Positions 3,775 through 61,274 of a stretch of DNA of 64,000 nt are shown piece by piece. Where the stretch lies: positions 8,645 to 72,644 of the forward strand of contig MGIR01000001.1 of assembly GCA_001793855.1 (NCBI GenBank), read 5' to 3'. The position numbers and the translations under genes are program-made. The DNA is from Candidatus Wolfebacteria bacterium RIFCSPLOWO2_01_FULL_45_19. GTDB taxonomy: Bacteria > Patescibacteriota > Minisyncoccia > UBA6257 > GWB1-45-9. Under the pieces are notes generated by a model. It searched no databases and was not told the DNA's origin. It was given only the letters and a program-made list of their open reading frames with translations. Every line of letters starts with the position of its first letter. Position 1 is the stretch's first letter.

Positions 3775-4815
3775 TCATGATATGTCCTTTGGTTGCATGG
3801 GCACATTTAGAATATTCTTATAAAATTCAAGCTTCTCTATCGCGACGCCAGTGCCGCGCACAACGCAAGTTAGAGGGTCATCAATCACAACGGTTTTAAC
3901 ACCAAGCTCTTTTTCTATAAGCTGATCCATGCCTCTCAACAAACTGCCGCCGCCGCAAAGATGCACTCCGCTTTTCAGCGTATCGCCTACCAATTCCGGC
4001 GGAGTCATTTCTATAACGTCTCGAATGGCGTCTATTATCAAACGGAGAGAACGCGACATCGCCACGCGCGCCTGAGTATTTTTTATGTTAATTTCTCTCG
4101 GCAAGCCCGTTGCCATATCCCTGCCCCTGATAAGCATTTCAAGACGTTCGTCTATCGGCGTTGCGGAGCCGACTGTTTTTTTTATTTCCTCTGCCGTTGG
4201 CTCGCCTATCGCAAGCTTGAATTCTTCACGAACGAAACGAATCAGATCTTCATTTAATTTTTCTCCCGCGACTTTCAAGCTTAGCGCAGTGACTATTCCC
4301 CCAGTCGATATAACCGCGATTTCCGTGGTGCCGCCGCCTATATCAACTATCATGCTCGCGGTTGATTCGTTTATCGGCAAATCCGCGCCAAGCGCCGCGG
4401 CAAGCGGCTCTTCAATAATATATGCCCTGGCGGCTCCGGCACCGAGAACGGCGTCTTCCACCGACTTGCGCTCAACTTCGGTCAAATTGATCGGAACGCC
4501 TATAACCGCACGGCGATACCTGAAAAAACTGCTTCCAAGCTTTTGAAAAAATTTCTGAAGCATTTCCTGCGCCATATCAAAATCTGATATAACTCCGTTT
4601 ACCAGCGGCTTAACAACCTCTATATGAGATGGGGTGCGGCCAAGCATTCGACTGGCTTCGTGTCCTATCGCGTGTATCTGACTTGTTTTTGTATTCAGGG
4701 CGACCATCGACGGCTCGTTTATGACAATTCCTCTGCCAACTTGATAAATGAGCGAATTAGCGGTTCCAAGGTCAACTCCAAAATCTTGTGAAGCAAATTT
4801 TAAAAATTTAGTCAT
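3775..4815 (-). CDS. mreB: rod shape-determining actin homologue MreB
   Basis: DLGTANSLIY and the full actin fold signature. Confidence 0.9.
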   Translation of the reverse strand: MTKFLKFASQDFGVDLGTANSLIYQVGRGIVINEPSMVALNTKTSQIHAIGHEASRMLGRTPSHIEVVKPLVNGVISDFDMAQEMLQKFFQKLGSSFFRYRRAVIGVPINLTEVERKSVEDAVLGAGAARAYIIEEPLAAALGADLPINESTASMIVDIGGGTTEIAVISTGGIVTALSLKVAGEKLNEDLIRFVREEFKLAIGEPTAEEIKKTVGSATPIDERLEMLIRGRDMATGLPREINIKNTQARVAMSRSLRLIIDAIRDVIEMTPPELVGDTLKSGVHLCGGGSLLRGMDQLIEKELGVKTVVIDDPLTCVVRGTGVAIEKLEFYKNILNVPMQPKDIS

Positions 4816-4839: not shown

Positions 4840-6093
4840 TTATAATAATTTCAATATCTTCTCCAAATTCATCGTCCGCATTTCATCAGAATCACGCCGC
4901 TTAACTTCAATCTCATTTTTTGTCTTGTCGCTGATTACCAGCCTGTACGGAATGCCAATCAGGTCGGCGTCGTTGAATTTTTCTCCGGCACTCACGCCTT
5001 CGCGGTCGTCATACAATACTTCAACTCCCGCCTTTTGCAATTTGTCATATATTTTCTGCCCTCTGTCTTCTGTTTTCTGTTTTCTATTTATTGAAATCAG
5101 ATGCGCTTTAAACGGCGCAATGTTCTCCGGCCAGACTATCCCCCTTCCGTCATGAAAAACTTCCACAGCGGTTCCCATCGTGCGACCGAGACCTATGCCG
5201 TATGATCCCATAACAACGTATTTTTTTTCGCCTCGCTCATCGGTGAACCGCAAATTAAACGCCTCAGAATATTTAGTGCCTAAAGGAAAAATATTCCCAA
5301 CTTCAATAGCGCGCTTCTCCATTACCGCGCCTCCACATTTCGGACATTTGTCTCCGGTTTTAAGTTTTGATATTTCTTTATTTTCCGCGTACTCGCACTT
5401 TTCGCAGACGCAAATGGTATCCTCGCCAACGTCGGCAAGAATTTGGAATTCGTGGGTGTTGCTTACGGTAAATTCACCGCCGGCGGCCAAGGTGTAAATT
5501 GATTTAAGGCCGCAACGTTTAAATATTTTATGGTAGGCCTTGGCGACTTTTTGATAATATTTATTCAGATCATTTTCAGAAACGTGGAAGCTATACAAAT
5601 CCTTCATTAAAAACTCACGCCCTCTCAACAGGCCGGATTTGGCTCGCGGCTCATGCCGGAATTTGGTCTGAATCTGATAGGCGGCAAGTGGCAAATCTTG
5701 ATAAGAATTGACGTAACTCGCGGCAATTTCGGCAATAACCTCTTCGTGAGTCCAGCTTATGTTGAAAGACGGCTCGTCTTCGTTTCCGGCAAACACTTTA
5801 TACACCACTCCGACATCCCATCGCCCGGTCGCGGTTAAATAACGCTTGTCATGCAGGGCGGCCATCAACATTTCCTGACCACCGATGGCATCCATCTCTC
5901 CGCGAATAATATCCGCGATTTTTTTAAGCACCCGCCAGCCCAAAGGCAAAAAAGAATAAACGCCCGCGGAATTTTTGTACACAAAACCTCCGCGCGTAAG
6001 CAGTTTAGCGTTAACCGATTCTTCGTCCTTCGGCGCCTCCCGCCTTGTTTTTGAAAAAAGTTCTGATTGTCTCACGCAATCATTATAAAACAC
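4840..6093 (-). CDS. proS: prolyl-tRNA synthetase (short form without editing insertion)
   Basis: Class II motif 2 FRHEPRAKSGLLRGREFLMKDLYSF matches ProRS. C-terminal CxxC..CxxC. Confidence 0.75.
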   Translation of the reverse strand: MFYNDCVRQSELFSKTRREAPKDEESVNAKLLTRGGFVYKNSAGVYSFLPLGWRVLKKIADIIRGEMDAIGGQEMLMAALHDKRYLTATGRWDVGVVYKVFAGNEDEPSFNISWTHEEVIAEIAASYVNSYQDLPLAAYQIQTKFRHEPRAKSGLLRGREFLMKDLYSFHVSENDLNKYYQKVAKAYHKIFKRCGLKSIYTLAAGGEFTVSNTHEFQILADVGEDTICVCEKCEYAENKEISKLKTGDKCPKCGGAVMEKRAIEVGNIFPLGTKYSEAFNLRFTDERGEKKYVVMGSYGIGLGRTMGTAVEVFHDGRGIVWPENIAPFKAHLISINRKQKTEDRGQKIYDKLQKAGVEVLYDDREGVSAGEKFNDADLIGIPYRLVISDKTKNEIEVKRRDSDEMRTMNLEKILKLL

Positions 6094-6907
6094 AAAATTA
6101 TTTTAGTCATGCCCAATAATTAGGGCTTACGAAGCTCTAAATATTACTCCAAAGTTATTTGCGATATATCGCGTGAATCCATCTCCTTGAGCCAGCTCGT
6201 CATTGATTTTTTATACTGCTCCGGCCCATCAAAAAATTTAAGCAAGAGATCTCTCTGCGTTACGGAGGGAAAATTCTTTTTACCGATATAATCCGGAAAA
6301 CTGCTCCATCGGTAGTTTTCTAAATAGGCAAACGCTTTTTTATAATCTTTGACATCTCGCTCTCTCCAATTTGGCGCGAAATAATCAAGCGGATTGCAGT
6401 GAATATAAAATGGGAGGTGAATAAAATGCGCGTCATTATCGACGGCGATACATTTATATCTTCCTTCAAAAAGCGCGCCGGCTCTTTTGTATTTTAGATT
6501 AAAATAATTCGCGTATCCCATATTCAATCGCCGCATAAAAAGCGTCAACCATTCTTTAGAGCGCGCCCTGACGAGTAAATGATAATGATTTTTCATTAAA
6601 CAAAAAGTTAACATCTCAGCCAACAATATCCGCGGCCTTCGCTGTTTTTGTTGCCTCTCAATATTAGGGCTTGCGAAGCCCGAAGGATTAGTTTTGAAAA
6701 GATAGGTATTATTTGGAAGCGGCTGAGCGTCGTTAAATTCAAATAAATTATGAATAAATCTCATAAAATCCTCTTCATCCAAAAAAAGTTTTCTTTTGTC
6801 AACTCCTCTGCTTAAAATGTGGTAAATATTTCCAGGTATAATTTGCGGCCTCATAATAAACATACTCTAGCGCAACACTTAGGGCTTCGCAAGCCCTAAG
6901 TGTTGCG
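6094..6907. mobile_element. REP/RAYT unit: IS200-like tyrosine transposase gene flanked by TTAGGGCTT-NGC-AAGCCCTAA hairpins
   Basis: Hairpins at ~6100-6128 and 6871-6907 (16-17 bp stem), plus a third copy inside the ORF at ~6663-6683. Confidence 0.6.
6144..6863 (-). CDS. REP-associated tyrosine transposase (RAYT, IS200/IS605 Y1 family)
   Basis: YHILSRG and NHYHLLV HuH motif. Confidence 0.7.
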   Translation of the reverse strand: MFIMRPQIIPGNIYHILSRGVDKRKLFLDEEDFMRFIHNLFEFNDAQPLPNNTYLFKTNPSGFASPNIERQQKQRRPRILLAEMLTFCLMKNHYHLLVRARSKEWLTLFMRRLNMGYANYFNLKYKRAGALFEGRYKCIAVDNDAHFIHLPFYIHCNPLDYFAPNWRERDVKDYKKAFAYLENYRWSSFPDYIGKKNFPSVTQRDLLLKFFDGPEQYKKSMTSWLKEMDSRDISQITLE

Positions 6908-6941
6908 GCGCAGACTCAATTCCGCTTACAATATAAGCGGA

Positions 6942-8240
6942 ATGGCGAAATTTCTTACACAAGGCGGGCGGGCACTAAATGGTGAGATAACTTTGGCCGG
7001 GGCGAAAAACGCGGCGACCAAAATGCTGGTCGCTTCTCTGCTGACTGACGAGCAGTGCGAATTTGAAAACTTTCCTGAAATCGGCGACACGGAAATAACC
7101 GCGGAATTGTGCCGGACAATCGGCAGTGAAATTAAAATCAAAAACAATAAAGCCGTCATTCGCACTCCGCGAATAAAACAAACTTCCGCGGTTTCCCTCA
7201 GCAGAAAAAATCGCATTCCCATATTAACTTTGGGACCCCTGCTCGCGCGCGCGAGCGAAGCGGAAATACCCATTTTGGGCGGAGACAAAATCGGACCGCG
7301 TCCCGTGGACATCCATTTGGAAGCGCTTAGAAGCATGGGGGCTGAAATAGAAGCAACGGAAAATGGATACAAGGCGCGAGCTCCGCGCGGCCTGCGCGGT
7401 GCGAATCTGTCTTTTCTCCATCCGAGTGTCGGAGCCACAGAGAACGTCATTCTCGCGGCGACGCTCGCGAAAGGCAAAACAAGAATCCACAACGCGGCGA
7501 TTGAACCGGAAATAATCAGCTTGATAGAAATGCTCCAAAAAATGGGGGCTATAATAGAATTAGGCGCGAACCGAACAGTTTATGTTGAAGGCGTTGAAAA
7601 ACTGCGCGGCGCGAAACATGCCGTAATTCCGGACAGAAACGAAGCGGTTTCATTCGCTTGCCTAGCCGCGGCAACCGGAGGAAAAATAAAAATAAAAGGC
7701 GCGCGGCAAAATCATTTGATAACCTTTCTAAACGCTTTCAGAAAAATCGGGGGCGAATACGAAGTCGACGACGACGGCATAATTTTTTGGAAAAACGGCG
7801 CTCTTCACGGCATAGAAATTGAAACGGACGCACACCCAGGCTTTATGACCGATTGGCAACAACCATTCGCCATTCTTCTTACGCAGGCTAAAGGAACATC
7901 GGTGATTCACGAAACCATATACGAAAATCGCTTTGGTTACGCCAAAGACTTGAATACGCTCGGCGCGAACATACAAATATTTACGAAATGCCTCGGCGAA
8001 TTGCCTTGCCGCTTCAACGGGATGAATCTAAGTCACAGCGCGACAATACACGGAGCGACTCCATTGCGCGGTTCAAAGCTCATAGTGCGCGATTTGCGGT
8101 CGGGCATCGCCCACGTTATCGCGGCGCTTGTCGCATCCGGAGAATCCGTGATTGAAGGAATTGAAGAAATAGACCGCGGATATGAGAAAATAGACGAACG
8201 GCTTAGAACGCTTGGAGCCAAGATTGAGAGAATTTCATAA
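6942..8240 (+). CDS. murA: UDP-N-acetylglucosamine 1-carboxyvinyltransferase
   Basis: MAKFLTQGG...LAGAKNAATK N-terminus. The track ORF starts at 6900, but that extension overlaps the strong hairpin at 6871-6907, so the start is set at 6942. Confidence 0.85.
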   Translation: MAKFLTQGGRALNGEITLAGAKNAATKMLVASLLTDEQCEFENFPEIGDTEITAELCRTIGSEIKIKNNKAVIRTPRIKQTSAVSLSRKNRIPILTLGPLLARASEAEIPILGGDKIGPRPVDIHLEALRSMGAEIEATENGYKARAPRGLRGANLSFLHPSVGATENVILAATLAKGKTRIHNAAIEPEIISLIEMLQKMGAIIELGANRTVYVEGVEKLRGAKHAVIPDRNEAVSFACLAAATGGKIKIKGARQNHLITFLNAFRKIGGEYEVDDDGIIFWKNGALHGIEIETDAHPGFMTDWQQPFAILLTQAKGTSVIHETIYENRFGYAKDLNTLGANIQIFTKCLGELPCRFNGMNLSHSATIHGATPLRGSKLIVRDLRSGIAHVIAALVASGESVIEGIEEIDRGYEKIDERLRTLGAKIERIS

Positions 8241-8358: not shown

Positions 8359-9369
8359 ATGTTTACTCGCAAAATCGGCATAGACCTTGGAACCGCGAAC
8401 ACTATCATATTCGTGCCCGGACGCGGTTTTATAATAAACGAACCAACCATAGTCGCGCTTAACAATTCAGACAATTCGGTTTTGGCGGTTGGCCGCGAAG
8501 CCAAAGAAATGCTCGGACGCACGCCGGAAGACATCACCGCTTACCGCCCTCTTAAAGACGGGGTAATAGCCGACTACTACATAACCAAGGCGATGCTCAA
8601 ATATTTCATCGCCAAAGCCGTCGGCCGTTTCAATTTGTCACGTCCCGACATCGTAATATCCGTTCCAGCCGGCATAACCACCACAGAACGCCGCGCGGTT
8701 ATAAACGCCGCCAAAGAAGCCGGGGCACAAGAGGCATATCCGGTAAAGGAACCCATACTCGCCGCGCTCGGCGCCGGCATTCCAGTAAACGCCCACCATT
8801 CCGGCAATATGATAATAAATATAGGAGGAGGCACTTCGGAGGTAGCCGTTATTTCACTCGGAGGTATCGTGTCATATGCAAGCCAGCGCGTAGCCGGCAA
8901 CAAGTTTGACCAGGCAATCATAAATTATCTGCGTAAAAAATATTCTTTGGCGATAGGAGAACAAACCGCGGAAACTATAAAAATAGAAATCGGTTCCGCC
9001 CTGCCTATAAAAAACAAACTGGAATTCAAACTACGTGGAAGGGATTGCATAACCGGATTGCCCAGAGACCTCGTGGTCAATTCCAATGAAATAGCCGAAG
9101 CGCTTACCCCACATCTTGTGGACATCGCCTCAGCCGCGCAGGGTGTTTTCAACGAAACTCCACCGGAACTAGTGGCGGATATAATGGAAAAAGGCCTAAT
9201 AATTTCCGGTGGCGGCGCGCAGTTAAGGCACATAAACGAGTTCTTTGAACGCGCCGTAGGAGTTCCGTCTTATATAGCCGAAGAACCGCTGTTTTGCGTG
9301 GCAAAAGGAACCGGACTTATACTGTCACACTTGGACGTGTATAAACGAACATTGTTGAACAGAAGATGA
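8359..9369 (+). CDS. second MreB/Mbl-like actin homologue
   Basis: IGIDLGTANTIIF. Paralogue of the 3775-4815 gene. Confidence 0.85.
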   Translation: MFTRKIGIDLGTANTIIFVPGRGFIINEPTIVALNNSDNSVLAVGREAKEMLGRTPEDITAYRPLKDGVIADYYITKAMLKYFIAKAVGRFNLSRPDIVISVPAGITTTERRAVINAAKEAGAQEAYPVKEPILAALGAGIPVNAHHSGNMIINIGGGTSEVAVISLGGIVSYASQRVAGNKFDQAIINYLRKKYSLAIGEQTAETIKIEIGSALPIKNKLEFKLRGRDCITGLPRDLVVNSNEIAEALTPHLVDIASAAQGVFNETPPELVADIMEKGLIISGGGAQLRHINEFFERAVGVPSYIAEEPLFCVAKGTGLILSHLDVYKRTLLNRR

Positions 9370-42071: not shown

Positions 42072-42076
42072 CAAAA

Positions 42077-42112
42077 AAGGAATACGCAACACGGATTGCG
42101 TATTCCTTTTTT
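42077..42112 (+). terminator. rho-independent terminator
   Basis: AAGGAATACGCAA-cacgg-ATTGCGTATTCCTTTTTT. Confidence 0.75.
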
Positions 42113-48189: not shown

Positions 48190-48290
48190 TTTGGCCTAGG
48201 ACATCCCGCACCTTTCGTTTTAAAACGAAAGGTGCGGGACAAGTCAGCTTCCTTGCCCCGCATTAAAATTTAAGCAAAACTTAACAATAT

Positions 48291-48363: not shown

Positions 48364-48403
48364 CGGAATTTTTAGTGCGTGGTCAAGACGAGAGCGTTAT
48401 AAA

Positions 48404-48437
48404 ACGAATACGCGCGGCGCCGCGCGTATTCGTTTTT
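48404..48437 (+). terminator. rho-independent terminator
   Basis: ACGAATACGCGCGGCGCCGCGCGTATTCGTTTTT. Confidence 0.7.
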
Positions 48438-60965: not shown

Positions 60966-61213
60966 AACTGAAAGAACAAGTAAAAAAAAGAAAATTGGAA
61001 GGCATTGTCGTTTCGGACAAGATGCAGAAAACAAGAGTGGTTGAAATAACGCGGTTTAAGAAAAATCCCAAATACTTGAAGTATTACAAAGTAAGCCGCA
61101 AATTTAAGGCGCATGACGAGAATAACGAATACAAGACGGGGGATAAGGTTGTTATTGAAGAAACAAGGCCGCTGAGCAGGGAAAAGAGGTGGAGAATCGT
61201 GCAAAAGATTTAA
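60962..61213 (+). CDS. rpsQ: 30S ribosomal protein S17
   Basis: Conserved sequence. Confidence 0.85.
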
Positions 61214-61274
61214 GATATAAGATTTAAGAAGTAAGAGTCTTAAATCATAAACCTTAAATCCTAAATCTAAACAA
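61214..61274. repeat. taagat/atctta heptamer palindrome
   Basis: agatataagatttaagaagtaagagtc ttaaatcataaaccttaaatcctaaatct. Confidence 0.6.

Follow-up and report, generated by a model that had tools for sequence, protein, structure and literature searches.

In the 64-kb stretch of Candidatus Wolfebacteria DNA analyzed here (64,000 nucleotides, hereafter the window), a gene for an enzyme of the Y1/HUH type lies between proS and murA and is accompanied by three copies of one palindrome, located upstream of the gene, within it and downstream of it. The gene and the palindromes together probably form a self-contained cassette of about 0.8 kb, consisting of the gene for a class-2 Y1/HUH single-stranded DNA endonuclease/transferase and its three cognate palindromes (5', in-frame internal and 3'), in an organization resembling that of REPtrons and TIRtrons. 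The same three-hairpin layout characterizes a large family in Parcubacteria, apparently undescribed so far, of which the cassette is a member. Direct support is provided by the protein fold, the catalytic residues, the three matched palindromes, the conservation of hairpin positions and codon phase in most of the members examined, the concerted change of the copies from locus to locus, and the presence or absence of the unit as a block.

The palindrome, TTAGGGCTT-N3-AAGCCCTAA (spelled out, TTAGGGCTTNNNAAGCCCTAA), was detected in exactly three copies in the 64 kb when up to 3 mismatches were allowed, while 0.04 copies were expected, and none of 100 shuffled sequences reached three. The locations of the three copies are listed in Table 1 together with those of the genes. 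A reading of this DNA made earlier from the sequence only (the first-pass annotation) had described the gene as flanked by its own cognate palindromes, and this was borne out by the copies at 6879-6899 and 6120-6140. Its coordinates for the right copy, 6871-6907, also hold, and the stem there, given as 16-17 bp, is a perfect one of 17 bp; the left copy had been placed at 6100-6128 and the internal copy at 6663-6683, in place of 6120-6140 and 6664-6684. The loop had been given as (C/T)GC, and the actual loops are ACG, GCG and CGC. The upstream copy gave a DNA fold energy of -21.1 kcal/mol (z = -7.9). The foot of the hairpin reads ...CGCAACAC/TTAGGG... in the window, the family consensus being (C)AATCTA...TAGATT(G), and the 5' GT[AG]G guide tetranucleotide is absent from the foot of the window hairpin.

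Table 1. Features of the proS-murA region of the window, in window coordinates.
Feature	Position	Strand	Remarks
proS	4840-6078	(-)	TIGR00409, 436 bits vs cut-off 306.7
Segment present in window, absent in L092/L093	6079..6941	.	cassette plus ~35-40 nucleotides of spacer on each side
Downstream palindrome	6120-6140	.	8/9 stem pairs, one mismatch; 3 nucleotides past Y1 stop; 41 nucleotides before proS start
Stop codon of Y1 gene	6144-6146	(-)	
Y1/HUH gene, class-2, RAYT/TIRYT-like	6144..6854	(-)	236 aa; open reading frame intact, Pfam Y1_Tnp
Longer version of Y1 gene	6144..6863	(-)	in-frame ATG at 6863 upstream, giving 239 aa
Internal palindrome	6664-6684	.	8/9 stem pairs, one mismatch; in frame inside Y1 gene
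Upstream palindrome	core 6879-6899, stem 6871-6907	.	perfect 17-bp stem, 3-nucleotide loop; 16 nucleotides before Y1 start codon
murA	6942-8240	(+)	TIGR01072, 491 bits vs cut-off 392.7; ATG at 6942

The Y1 gene and murA are divergent, with the upstream palindrome between them. Of the two possible start codons the ATG at 6854 is the likely one, because homologues begin with MRxxI, and the protein of 236 amino acids read from it is identical to database protein P0001; the residue numbers used below follow the 239-residue open reading frame (ORF) from 6863. The protein matched Pfam Y1_Tnp (PF01797) at 32 bits against a cut-off of 23 (the same model is matched by all 19 aligned members of the family) and contains the motifs YHILSRG, NHYHLLV (HuH), LFEGRY and YIHCNP and a YRWSS tail. 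The first-pass annotation of a Y1 transposase with YHILSRG and NHYHLLV between proS and murA was thus confirmed by an intact ORF, by the Pfam match and by the TIGRFAM assignments of both flanking genes. The HUH pair corresponds to H93 and H95, and the predicted catalytic tyrosine is Y153 within YIHCNP. When the window protein was aligned with 18 homologues, H93, H95, Y153, I154, H155, N157, R185, W186 and S188 were invariant and P158 was conserved in at least 90% of the sequences; the family consensus has FQ where the window protein has FE in LFEGRY. By these motifs the protein is assigned to class 2 (Y---NP) of the Y1/HUH superfamily and not to class 1, that of IS200 (Y---Q).

Its more specific identity as a RAYT (a transposase associated with repetitive extragenic palindromic [REP] sequences), as first proposed, is supported in part. 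The sole NCBIfam match was REP_Tyr_transpos (NF047646), which covered residues 82-159 only and scored 28.8 bits, far from the cut-off of 80; the NCBIfam models of the IS200 family gave no match at E up to 0.1. Matches in the PDB by sequence alone were marginal. The AlphaFold (AF2) model of the protein contains a Y1 core (predicted local distance difference test score, pLDDT, 73), and its best Foldseek match in the PDB was 4ER8_A, the E. coli TnpAREP in complex with a REP hairpin (E 4e-4, target TM 0.62), followed by the TnpA proteins of IS608 and ISDra2 (fold matches listed: 4ER8, 2A6O and 2XM3). In the C-terminal tail, no DnaA_C-like or other helix-turn-helix (HTH) domain was detected by Pfam in the 19 members at E up to 1, only Y1_Tnp and scattered noise being found; no fold search of the tail alone was made. 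The Y1 sequence is 99.8-100% identical in the independent assemblies L001, L002 and L089-L091. In L001, a short ENA contig, a GC-rich segment (1-228) unrelated to the window is joined inside murA, probably as an assembly chimera.

The Y1 protein gave 2,558 matches among clusters of 90% identity, the closest being 67% identical, and a profile search for the family gave 723 clusters at 50% identity (E up to 1e-30). The named matches were mostly from Parcubacteria, including Harrison-, Jorgensen-, Lipton- and Brennerbacteria and Minisyncoccia. For comparison within the family, 80 metagenome loci carrying Y1 proteins 51-63% identical to that of the window were scanned for hairpins. In most of the 80 loci, one hairpin is located 1-90 nucleotides upstream of the start codon, one within the ORF and one at or just past the stop codon. 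When hairpins with a stem of at least 9 and a 3-nucleotide loop were counted in or within 100 nucleotides of the Y1 genes, 146 of the 149 fell into three zones, upstream (47), internal (43) and downstream (56, counted from the last 40 nucleotides of the ORF to +100), and most of those in the downstream zone were within about 15 nucleotides of the stop codon. The hairpin density was 2.35/kb near the Y1 genes and 0.30/kb in the flanks, and of the 77 loci with at least 120 nucleotides of sequence before the gene, 74 had a detectable upstream hairpin.

The three copies change together from one locus to another. The inner 8-nucleotide arm is common to the upstream and internal copies in 53 loci, to the internal and downstream copies in 43 and to the upstream and downstream copies in 50 (at most 1 mismatch), and the mean number of mismatches in the 5' arm is 0.94 within a locus, against 3.5 between loci. 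Base pairing is retained in spite of this variation: stem pairs 2, 3, 6 and 7 each occur as 3-4 Watson-Crick types with 87-97% pairing and pair 8 as two types with 96%, while pairs 1 (T.A), 4 (A.T), 5 (G.C) and 9 (T.A) are nearly fixed. The family-type hairpin is described by T-N3-GA-N2-T / loop of 3 / A-N2-TC-N3-A; the window hairpin conforms at pairs 1, 5 and 9 and carries a rare variant at pair 4, and other subtypes, such as TTACGAAGT and AAGGACGT, are found in homologous loci. The likeness between copies stops at the edges of the palindrome, and compared with the loop of the internal copy, the loops of the flanking copies are oriented at random, all combinations being observed.

In some members of the family the flanking hairpins are accompanied by a second short element. 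In 12 of 72 distinct loci these hairpins are adjoined by the exact DnaA-box 9-mer, TTATCCACA/TGTGGATAA, with 15 boxes in 20 kb of near-gene flank and 6 in 307 kb, an enrichment of about 38-fold (Poisson P 5e-19). Examples within 150 nucleotides of the gene ends are L011, L030, L032, L045, L046, L052, L056, L061, L069, L075 and L086, and a further one is found in L082 (7240-7250). In L030 the repeated unit, present on both sides, is composed of the hairpin plus the DnaA box. No DnaA box was found near the cassette of the window.

The internal copy, treated as incidental in the first-pass annotation, is a conserved in-frame feature in most of the family members examined. The window copy specifies the residues P-S-G-F-A-S-P-N, which are part of a loop that follows helix alpha-A and precedes the strand ahead of the HUH motif; over residues 52-72, the pLDDT of the AF2 model is below 50. 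The window copy is centered on codon A64, at its first base, 19 codons past D45 of the FEFND motif. The center of the internal hairpin was in codon phase 0 in all 53 loci where it was detected, and 18-19 codons past FEFND in 40 of the 53. The peptide encoded by the loop follows the hairpin subtype, as in SIDLRNQYI, YKDVGRPYI and SYEVQLRKI, the corresponding window peptide being SGFASPNI. The 5' arm on the gene strand is TTCGGG in the internal copy and TTAGGG in the upstream copy; at the internal position TTAGGG would be read as CCT TAG GGC, with an in-frame stop codon. The single mismatch of the internal copy thus avoids an in-frame TAG, indicating that the internal palindrome departs from the flanking copies no further than the reading frame requires. 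In the family, likewise, flanking copies with ...TAGATT are matched by internal copies with ...TATATT, leading to a C.T mismatch that was counted 13 times in internal copies and 3 times and once in the others. The sequence of the internal site reflects the palindrome as well as the genetic code, through avoidance of a stop codon, which shows that selection acts on the DNA or RNA element and not on the peptide. In plasmid and phage collections, only relatives of 22-30% identity were found. Over the aligned span these are shorter by about 45 residues, as would be expected if the palindrome-bearing loop is family-specific.

One member, L043 (P0118), has no detectable hairpin at any of the three positions and still encodes the loop peptide ..NDIARPYI.., thus resembling a cassette with decayed palindromes. 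Mosaic Y1 genes were also found: L035/L077 switch at about nucleotide 350, and L050/L055 are 100% identical over nucleotides 439-739. The internal hairpin was considered as a recombination breakpoint, but only L035/L058 among the mosaics switch near a hairpin, and this idea is unsupported as a rule, chimeras being possible.

In this region of the genome the palindrome is local to the gene and does not belong to a dispersed REP/REPIN population. No further copy with up to 3 mismatches, no shared 10-mer and no other family-type hairpin was found in the remaining 63 kb of the window, and the 16-mers of the flanking copies occur at most twice, the number two being reached because the palindrome is self-complementary. 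A search for the exact palindrome in 185,579 species genomes, the source genome not among them, gave 5 single matches in unrelated taxa, which corresponds to the chance level. The description of the locus as a "REP system" is therefore unsupported, given the missed NCBIfam cut-off for RAYTs, the lack of a GTAG foot and the lack of dispersed copies in the window. In 45 homologous loci, covering 322 kb, only 17 cognate copies were located more than 150 nucleotides from the gene, and nearly all of these were within 1 kb. Limited scatter of hairpins does exist in the family, outside what was seen in the window. In other genomes at least 34 of 95 far hairpins (314 kb) are solo family-type hairpins, many of a non-cognate subtype, and dimers or arrays occur in L016, L074, L080 and L084. 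In L082, five subtypes follow one another between small ORFs.

The five family-type hairpins of L082 (7200-8596), which differ in subtype, lie downstream of the Y1 cassette at +585, +616, +1091, +1209 and +1791 from the Y1 gene; these separate several ORFs of 55-86 amino acids, and the whole resembles an array of hairpin-delimited mini-cassettes. L060 (gene order 10- 0- 39- 0+ 16-) contains two family members in opposite orientation on one contig of 5.3 kb, and the same hairpin subtype (TTGGGACAT...) is found there also at -162 and +1206.

Comparison with relatives lacking the gene indicates that the unit is present or absent as a block. In L092 and L093, with MurA 80% identical in amino acids and 77% in nucleotides, the start codons of proS and murA are 37 nucleotides apart and the Y1 gene is missing, while the corresponding distance in the window is 863 nucleotides. 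Alignable sequence between the window and the two relatives ends at about 6066, 12 nucleotides into proS from its 5' end, and begins again with the start codon of murA at 6942. A replacement was detected between L072 and L082, of which the flanks are about 70-95% identical in nucleotides (mostly 85-95%) and the neighboring proteins 83-90%, whereas the cassettes in between are 28-78% identical, with Y1 proteins 66% identical and a different subtype at all three hairpin positions. At the 80 homologous loci, no synteny with proS, murA, mreB or holB was found. Overall, the cassette seems to have low activity and to be inherited mostly vertically, with an occasional gain, loss or replacement of the whole block, which is nearer to the behavior of RAYTs and TIRYTs than to that of an active insertion sequence. 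In another relative, L094 (MurA 80% identical), a family-type hairpin, ..ATCCTCGAC-GAA-GTCGGGATAGATT.., is present about 25 nucleotides upstream of murA at the contig end (1-92); its subtype differs from that of the window, and the same junction may hold a different cassette there.

IS608 TnpA and the TnpAREP of E. coli serve as models for a proposed mode of action. When the DNA becomes single-stranded, for instance on the lagging-strand template, the palindromes would be extruded as hairpins and bound by the protein in dimeric form, and Tyr153 together with the HUH-bound metal would cut and rejoin the DNA beside them. Such hairpin-directed cutting and rejoining may be the way in which the unit was moved or replaced as a block, and may also be why the copies stay matched. 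The matching of the three copies could be maintained by selection for one binding specificity or by conversion or replacement limited to the hairpins; the restriction of likeness to the palindrome, combined with the random orientation of the loop, fits exchange in either orientation. The internal copy is kept at the DNA level within a disordered, family-specific loop, and its most likely role, put forward as a hypothesis, is that of a cis site for the protein encoded around it, either for autoregulation or as an alternative processing end. A wider version of the proposal, which we regard as quite unlikely, is a CPR-specific (candidate phyla radiation) system of hairpin-addressed cassettes, in which the three hairpins are alternative single-strand recombination sites, the internal one being self-limiting or self-regulating, and in which family-type hairpins, sometimes with an exact DnaA box, delimit other small cassettes exchanged in trans, as in the L082 array. 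If true, an integron-like, HUH-driven gene-cassette economy would operate in Parcubacteria.

Several observations weigh against the interpretation as a hairpin-processing cassette. The binding and cleavage of the palindromes by the enzyme are proposed by analogy only. Taken singly, the downstream and internal copies form weak hairpins (-5.9 and -6.0 kcal/mol, z -1.8 and -1.25), and with the loop orientation random, strand-specific recognition of the IS608 type is not evident and a double-stranded dyad operator is possible. Active transposition can only be supposed: neither a second copy of the cassette nor an identical cassette in two contexts was found, the family member P0034 is present on 21 contigs with the same neighbors in all, and several sub-lineages keep the Y1 gene at one syntenic site across diverged neighbors. 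A resident gene is also suggested by its single copy at each locus and by the identity of only 67% to its closest database homologue. The empty site could reflect a deletion, and the exact ends of the cassette are not mappable from it, the intergenic DNA being too diverged at 77% nucleotide identity. The metagenome assemblies used for the comparison may contain chimeras.

Some of these observations are shared with other explanations of the locus. The classical RAYT/REP arrangement supposes a domesticated single-copy RAYT and a REP/REPIN family that is dispersed elsewhere in the genome, is spread by the enzyme and happens to be missed by the 64-kb window. The class-2 Y---NP motif, the best fold match to TnpAREP and the REPtron-like palindromes on both flanks agree with this, as do the solo hairpins away from the gene in other genomes, some of them dimers or arrays, and the sub-lineage synteny, which suggests vertical inheritance as for RAYTs. 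We nevertheless consider it unlikely, since neither an extra copy nor a shared 10-mer exists in 63 kb, the few cognate copies away from the gene in homologous loci are nearly all close to it, the GT[AG]G foot is missing, the RAYT model of NCBIfam is matched at a score well short of its cut-off, and the motif signature fits subclass 2.1, described as being without REPs. Decay of an IS200-type insertion sequence (IS), or an IS fragment with chance or relic palindromes, is very improbable: the ORF is intact and identical across samples, the catalytic residues are invariant, the motifs are of class 2 and not of class 1 (DH[VI]H, Y---Q, ~150 amino acids), multiple near-identical copies are lacking, and the conservation of the three-hairpin layout in most of 80 diverged loci argues against decay. 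With such an element the locus shares its length (about 0.8 kb), its single ORF, its subterminal hairpins and the presence/absence polymorphism. The question raised in the first-pass annotation, whether the protein is an ordinary IS200 TnpA, is thus answered by its motifs, NHYH and Y---NP, and its 236 residues, all in favor of class 2.

Control of expression as the only function is also unlikely. According to this explanation the palindromes are RNA hairpins or a double-stranded dyad operator, insulating, stabilizing or repressing the transcript like the 5' structures of IS200, without a role in DNA cleavage or recombination, and the gene is an immobile resident of the host. No T-tract follows the hairpins and a terminator scan picked up none of the three; mismatches on the sense strand were G.U in 17 cases and A.C in 22, giving no bias (not significant); and within 5800-7200 no Rfam family was matched, the only match being a sub-threshold one of a miRNA model to the bare hairpin. 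An operator or RNA hairpin would be well placed just before the start codon and directly past the stop codon, and the symmetry of the palindromes with their random loop orientation, the occurrence of identical genes in one context only and the long-term synteny in sub-lineages would all be expected. By transcription control alone, it is hard to explain why the copy inside the ORF is kept identical to the flanking ones, and an immobile gene is at odds with the absence of the unit as a block in a relative, its replacement as a block in L072/L082 and the retention of all catalytic residues by the enzyme.

Among known systems, the arrangement is closer to a cassette of the REPtron or TIRtron type than to a REP/REPIN population served by a RAYT (Di Nocera 2013, PMC3733652; Quentin 2018, PMC6006769). 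In the classification of TnpA-Y1 proteins, in which Y---NP marks class 2 and Y---Q class 1 (PMC6006769), subclass 2.1 has the signature NH[YF]H / FQ / Y[IV]HLNP / SS in the proximal tail with a median length of 238 amino acids (Quentin 2018, PMC6006769), and corresponds to Group 1 of Bertels and to the TIRYTs of Di Nocera 2013 (PMC3733652; PMC6006769). The window protein shares this signature (NHYH, LFEGRY, YIHCNP, YRWSS, 236 amino acids), an assignment made by motif only. As in a TIRtron, the gene is present in low copy number between inverted or self-complementary repeats of its own, and such repeats do not necessarily form a genome-wide family. Members of subclass 2.1 are described as having no hairpin or REP nearby, terminal inverted repeats of the GGGGWSAS type and a C-terminal HTH like Bac_DnaA_C, HTH_23 or HTH_28 (PMC6006769). 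In contrast, the flanks of the window gene are short-loop palindromes, its tail has no HTH detected by Pfam, its family has a third copy in frame inside the gene, and the host belongs to the CPR/Parcubacteria.

The E. coli TnpAREP REPtron (4ER8), the best structural match, is also of the Y---NP class, with the gene bracketed by palindromes expected to be the hairpin targets of the enzyme. The window protein has about 70 residues more and an additional loop and tail, and the window differs in the lack of the GTAG guide tetranucleotide and of a visible dispersed REP/BIME population and in missing the NCBIfam equivalog cut-off. A cognate palindrome inside the ORF of the enzyme itself, in a peripheral loop and with the frame unbroken, is known in subclass 2.4 (Bertels Group 4), with hosts in Cyanobacteria and Bacteroidetes. 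The REP insertions of that subclass are variable, GTAG-footed and located between HuH and Y, whereas the copy described here precedes HuH, has a different foot and occupies one fixed codon and phase wherever an internal hairpin was detected. With IS200/IS605 elements (TnpA of IS200, IS608 and ISDra2) the cassette shares the HUH/Y1 fold, a length of about 0.7-0.8 kb with a subterminal hairpin at either end, the presence or absence as a block and the expectation of ends without inverted repeats or target duplications. Absent here are the class-1 features DH[VI]H, Y---Q and a protein of about 150 amino acids, as well as the high number of near-identical copies; and the hairpins of IS608 are imperfect and strand-specific, whereas those of the window and the family are near-perfect and symmetric. 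In the searchable literature, no description was found of the CPR family or of a third copy in frame at a fixed position, the nearest precedents being the REP insertions of subclass 2.4 and the TIRtrons.

The locus is a clean representative of a large, uncharacterized and mechanistically suggestive family. As far as can be judged from the named matches, the family is restricted to the very small genomes of CPR bacteria, in which mobile or selfish DNA is considered scarce. The family offers a compact test case for the host role of RAYT-like "domesticated" Y1 enzymes, with one enzyme and three defined, co-varying sites, and the paired specificity of hairpin subtype and protein lineage could help to read the recognition rules of HUH enzymes, which also serve as DNA-tagging tools. 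For annotation, neither "IS200 transposase" nor "REP system" should be applied to this gene without qualification.

The remaining observations concern the host, the neighborhood of the cassette and other repeats. The first-pass suggestion of a CPR genome holds, because a protein under the name Candidatus Wolfebacteria bacterium RIFCSPLOW... matches the window MurA with 100% identity. One copy of the Y1 cassette gene was detected in the 64 kb by tblastn. The segment from proS through the cassette to murA is bracketed by two divergent MreB paralogues (3775-4815, minus strand, and 8359-9369, plus strand), and the order mreB-proS|murA-mreB is also kept in the relative L092. A second, unrelated Y1_Tnp paralogue of 222 amino acids with NHWH and RYVERN is present in L096-L098 (for example, L096 5458-6126), about 4 kb from P0034, and is not accompanied by comparable hairpins.

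A separate hairpin at 6919-6943, ATTCCGCTTA-CAATA-TAAGCGGAAT, with a 10-bp stem, overlaps the first two bases of the murA ATG (6942) and is absent from the empty-site relatives L092 and L093. Long perfect palindromes with 14-17 bp stems and A/T-run flanks are found at 42073-42112, 48204-48239, 48401-48436 and 55995-56026; they are unrelated in sequence to the cassette hairpin and resemble bidirectional terminators. An AT-rich repeat of AAGATTT/TAAGA heptamer-like units, probably the heptamer palindrome class mentioned in the first-pass annotation, occurs in opposite orientation at 801-832 and 61205-61236 of the window, and again between murA and mreB in L094 (1397-1429).

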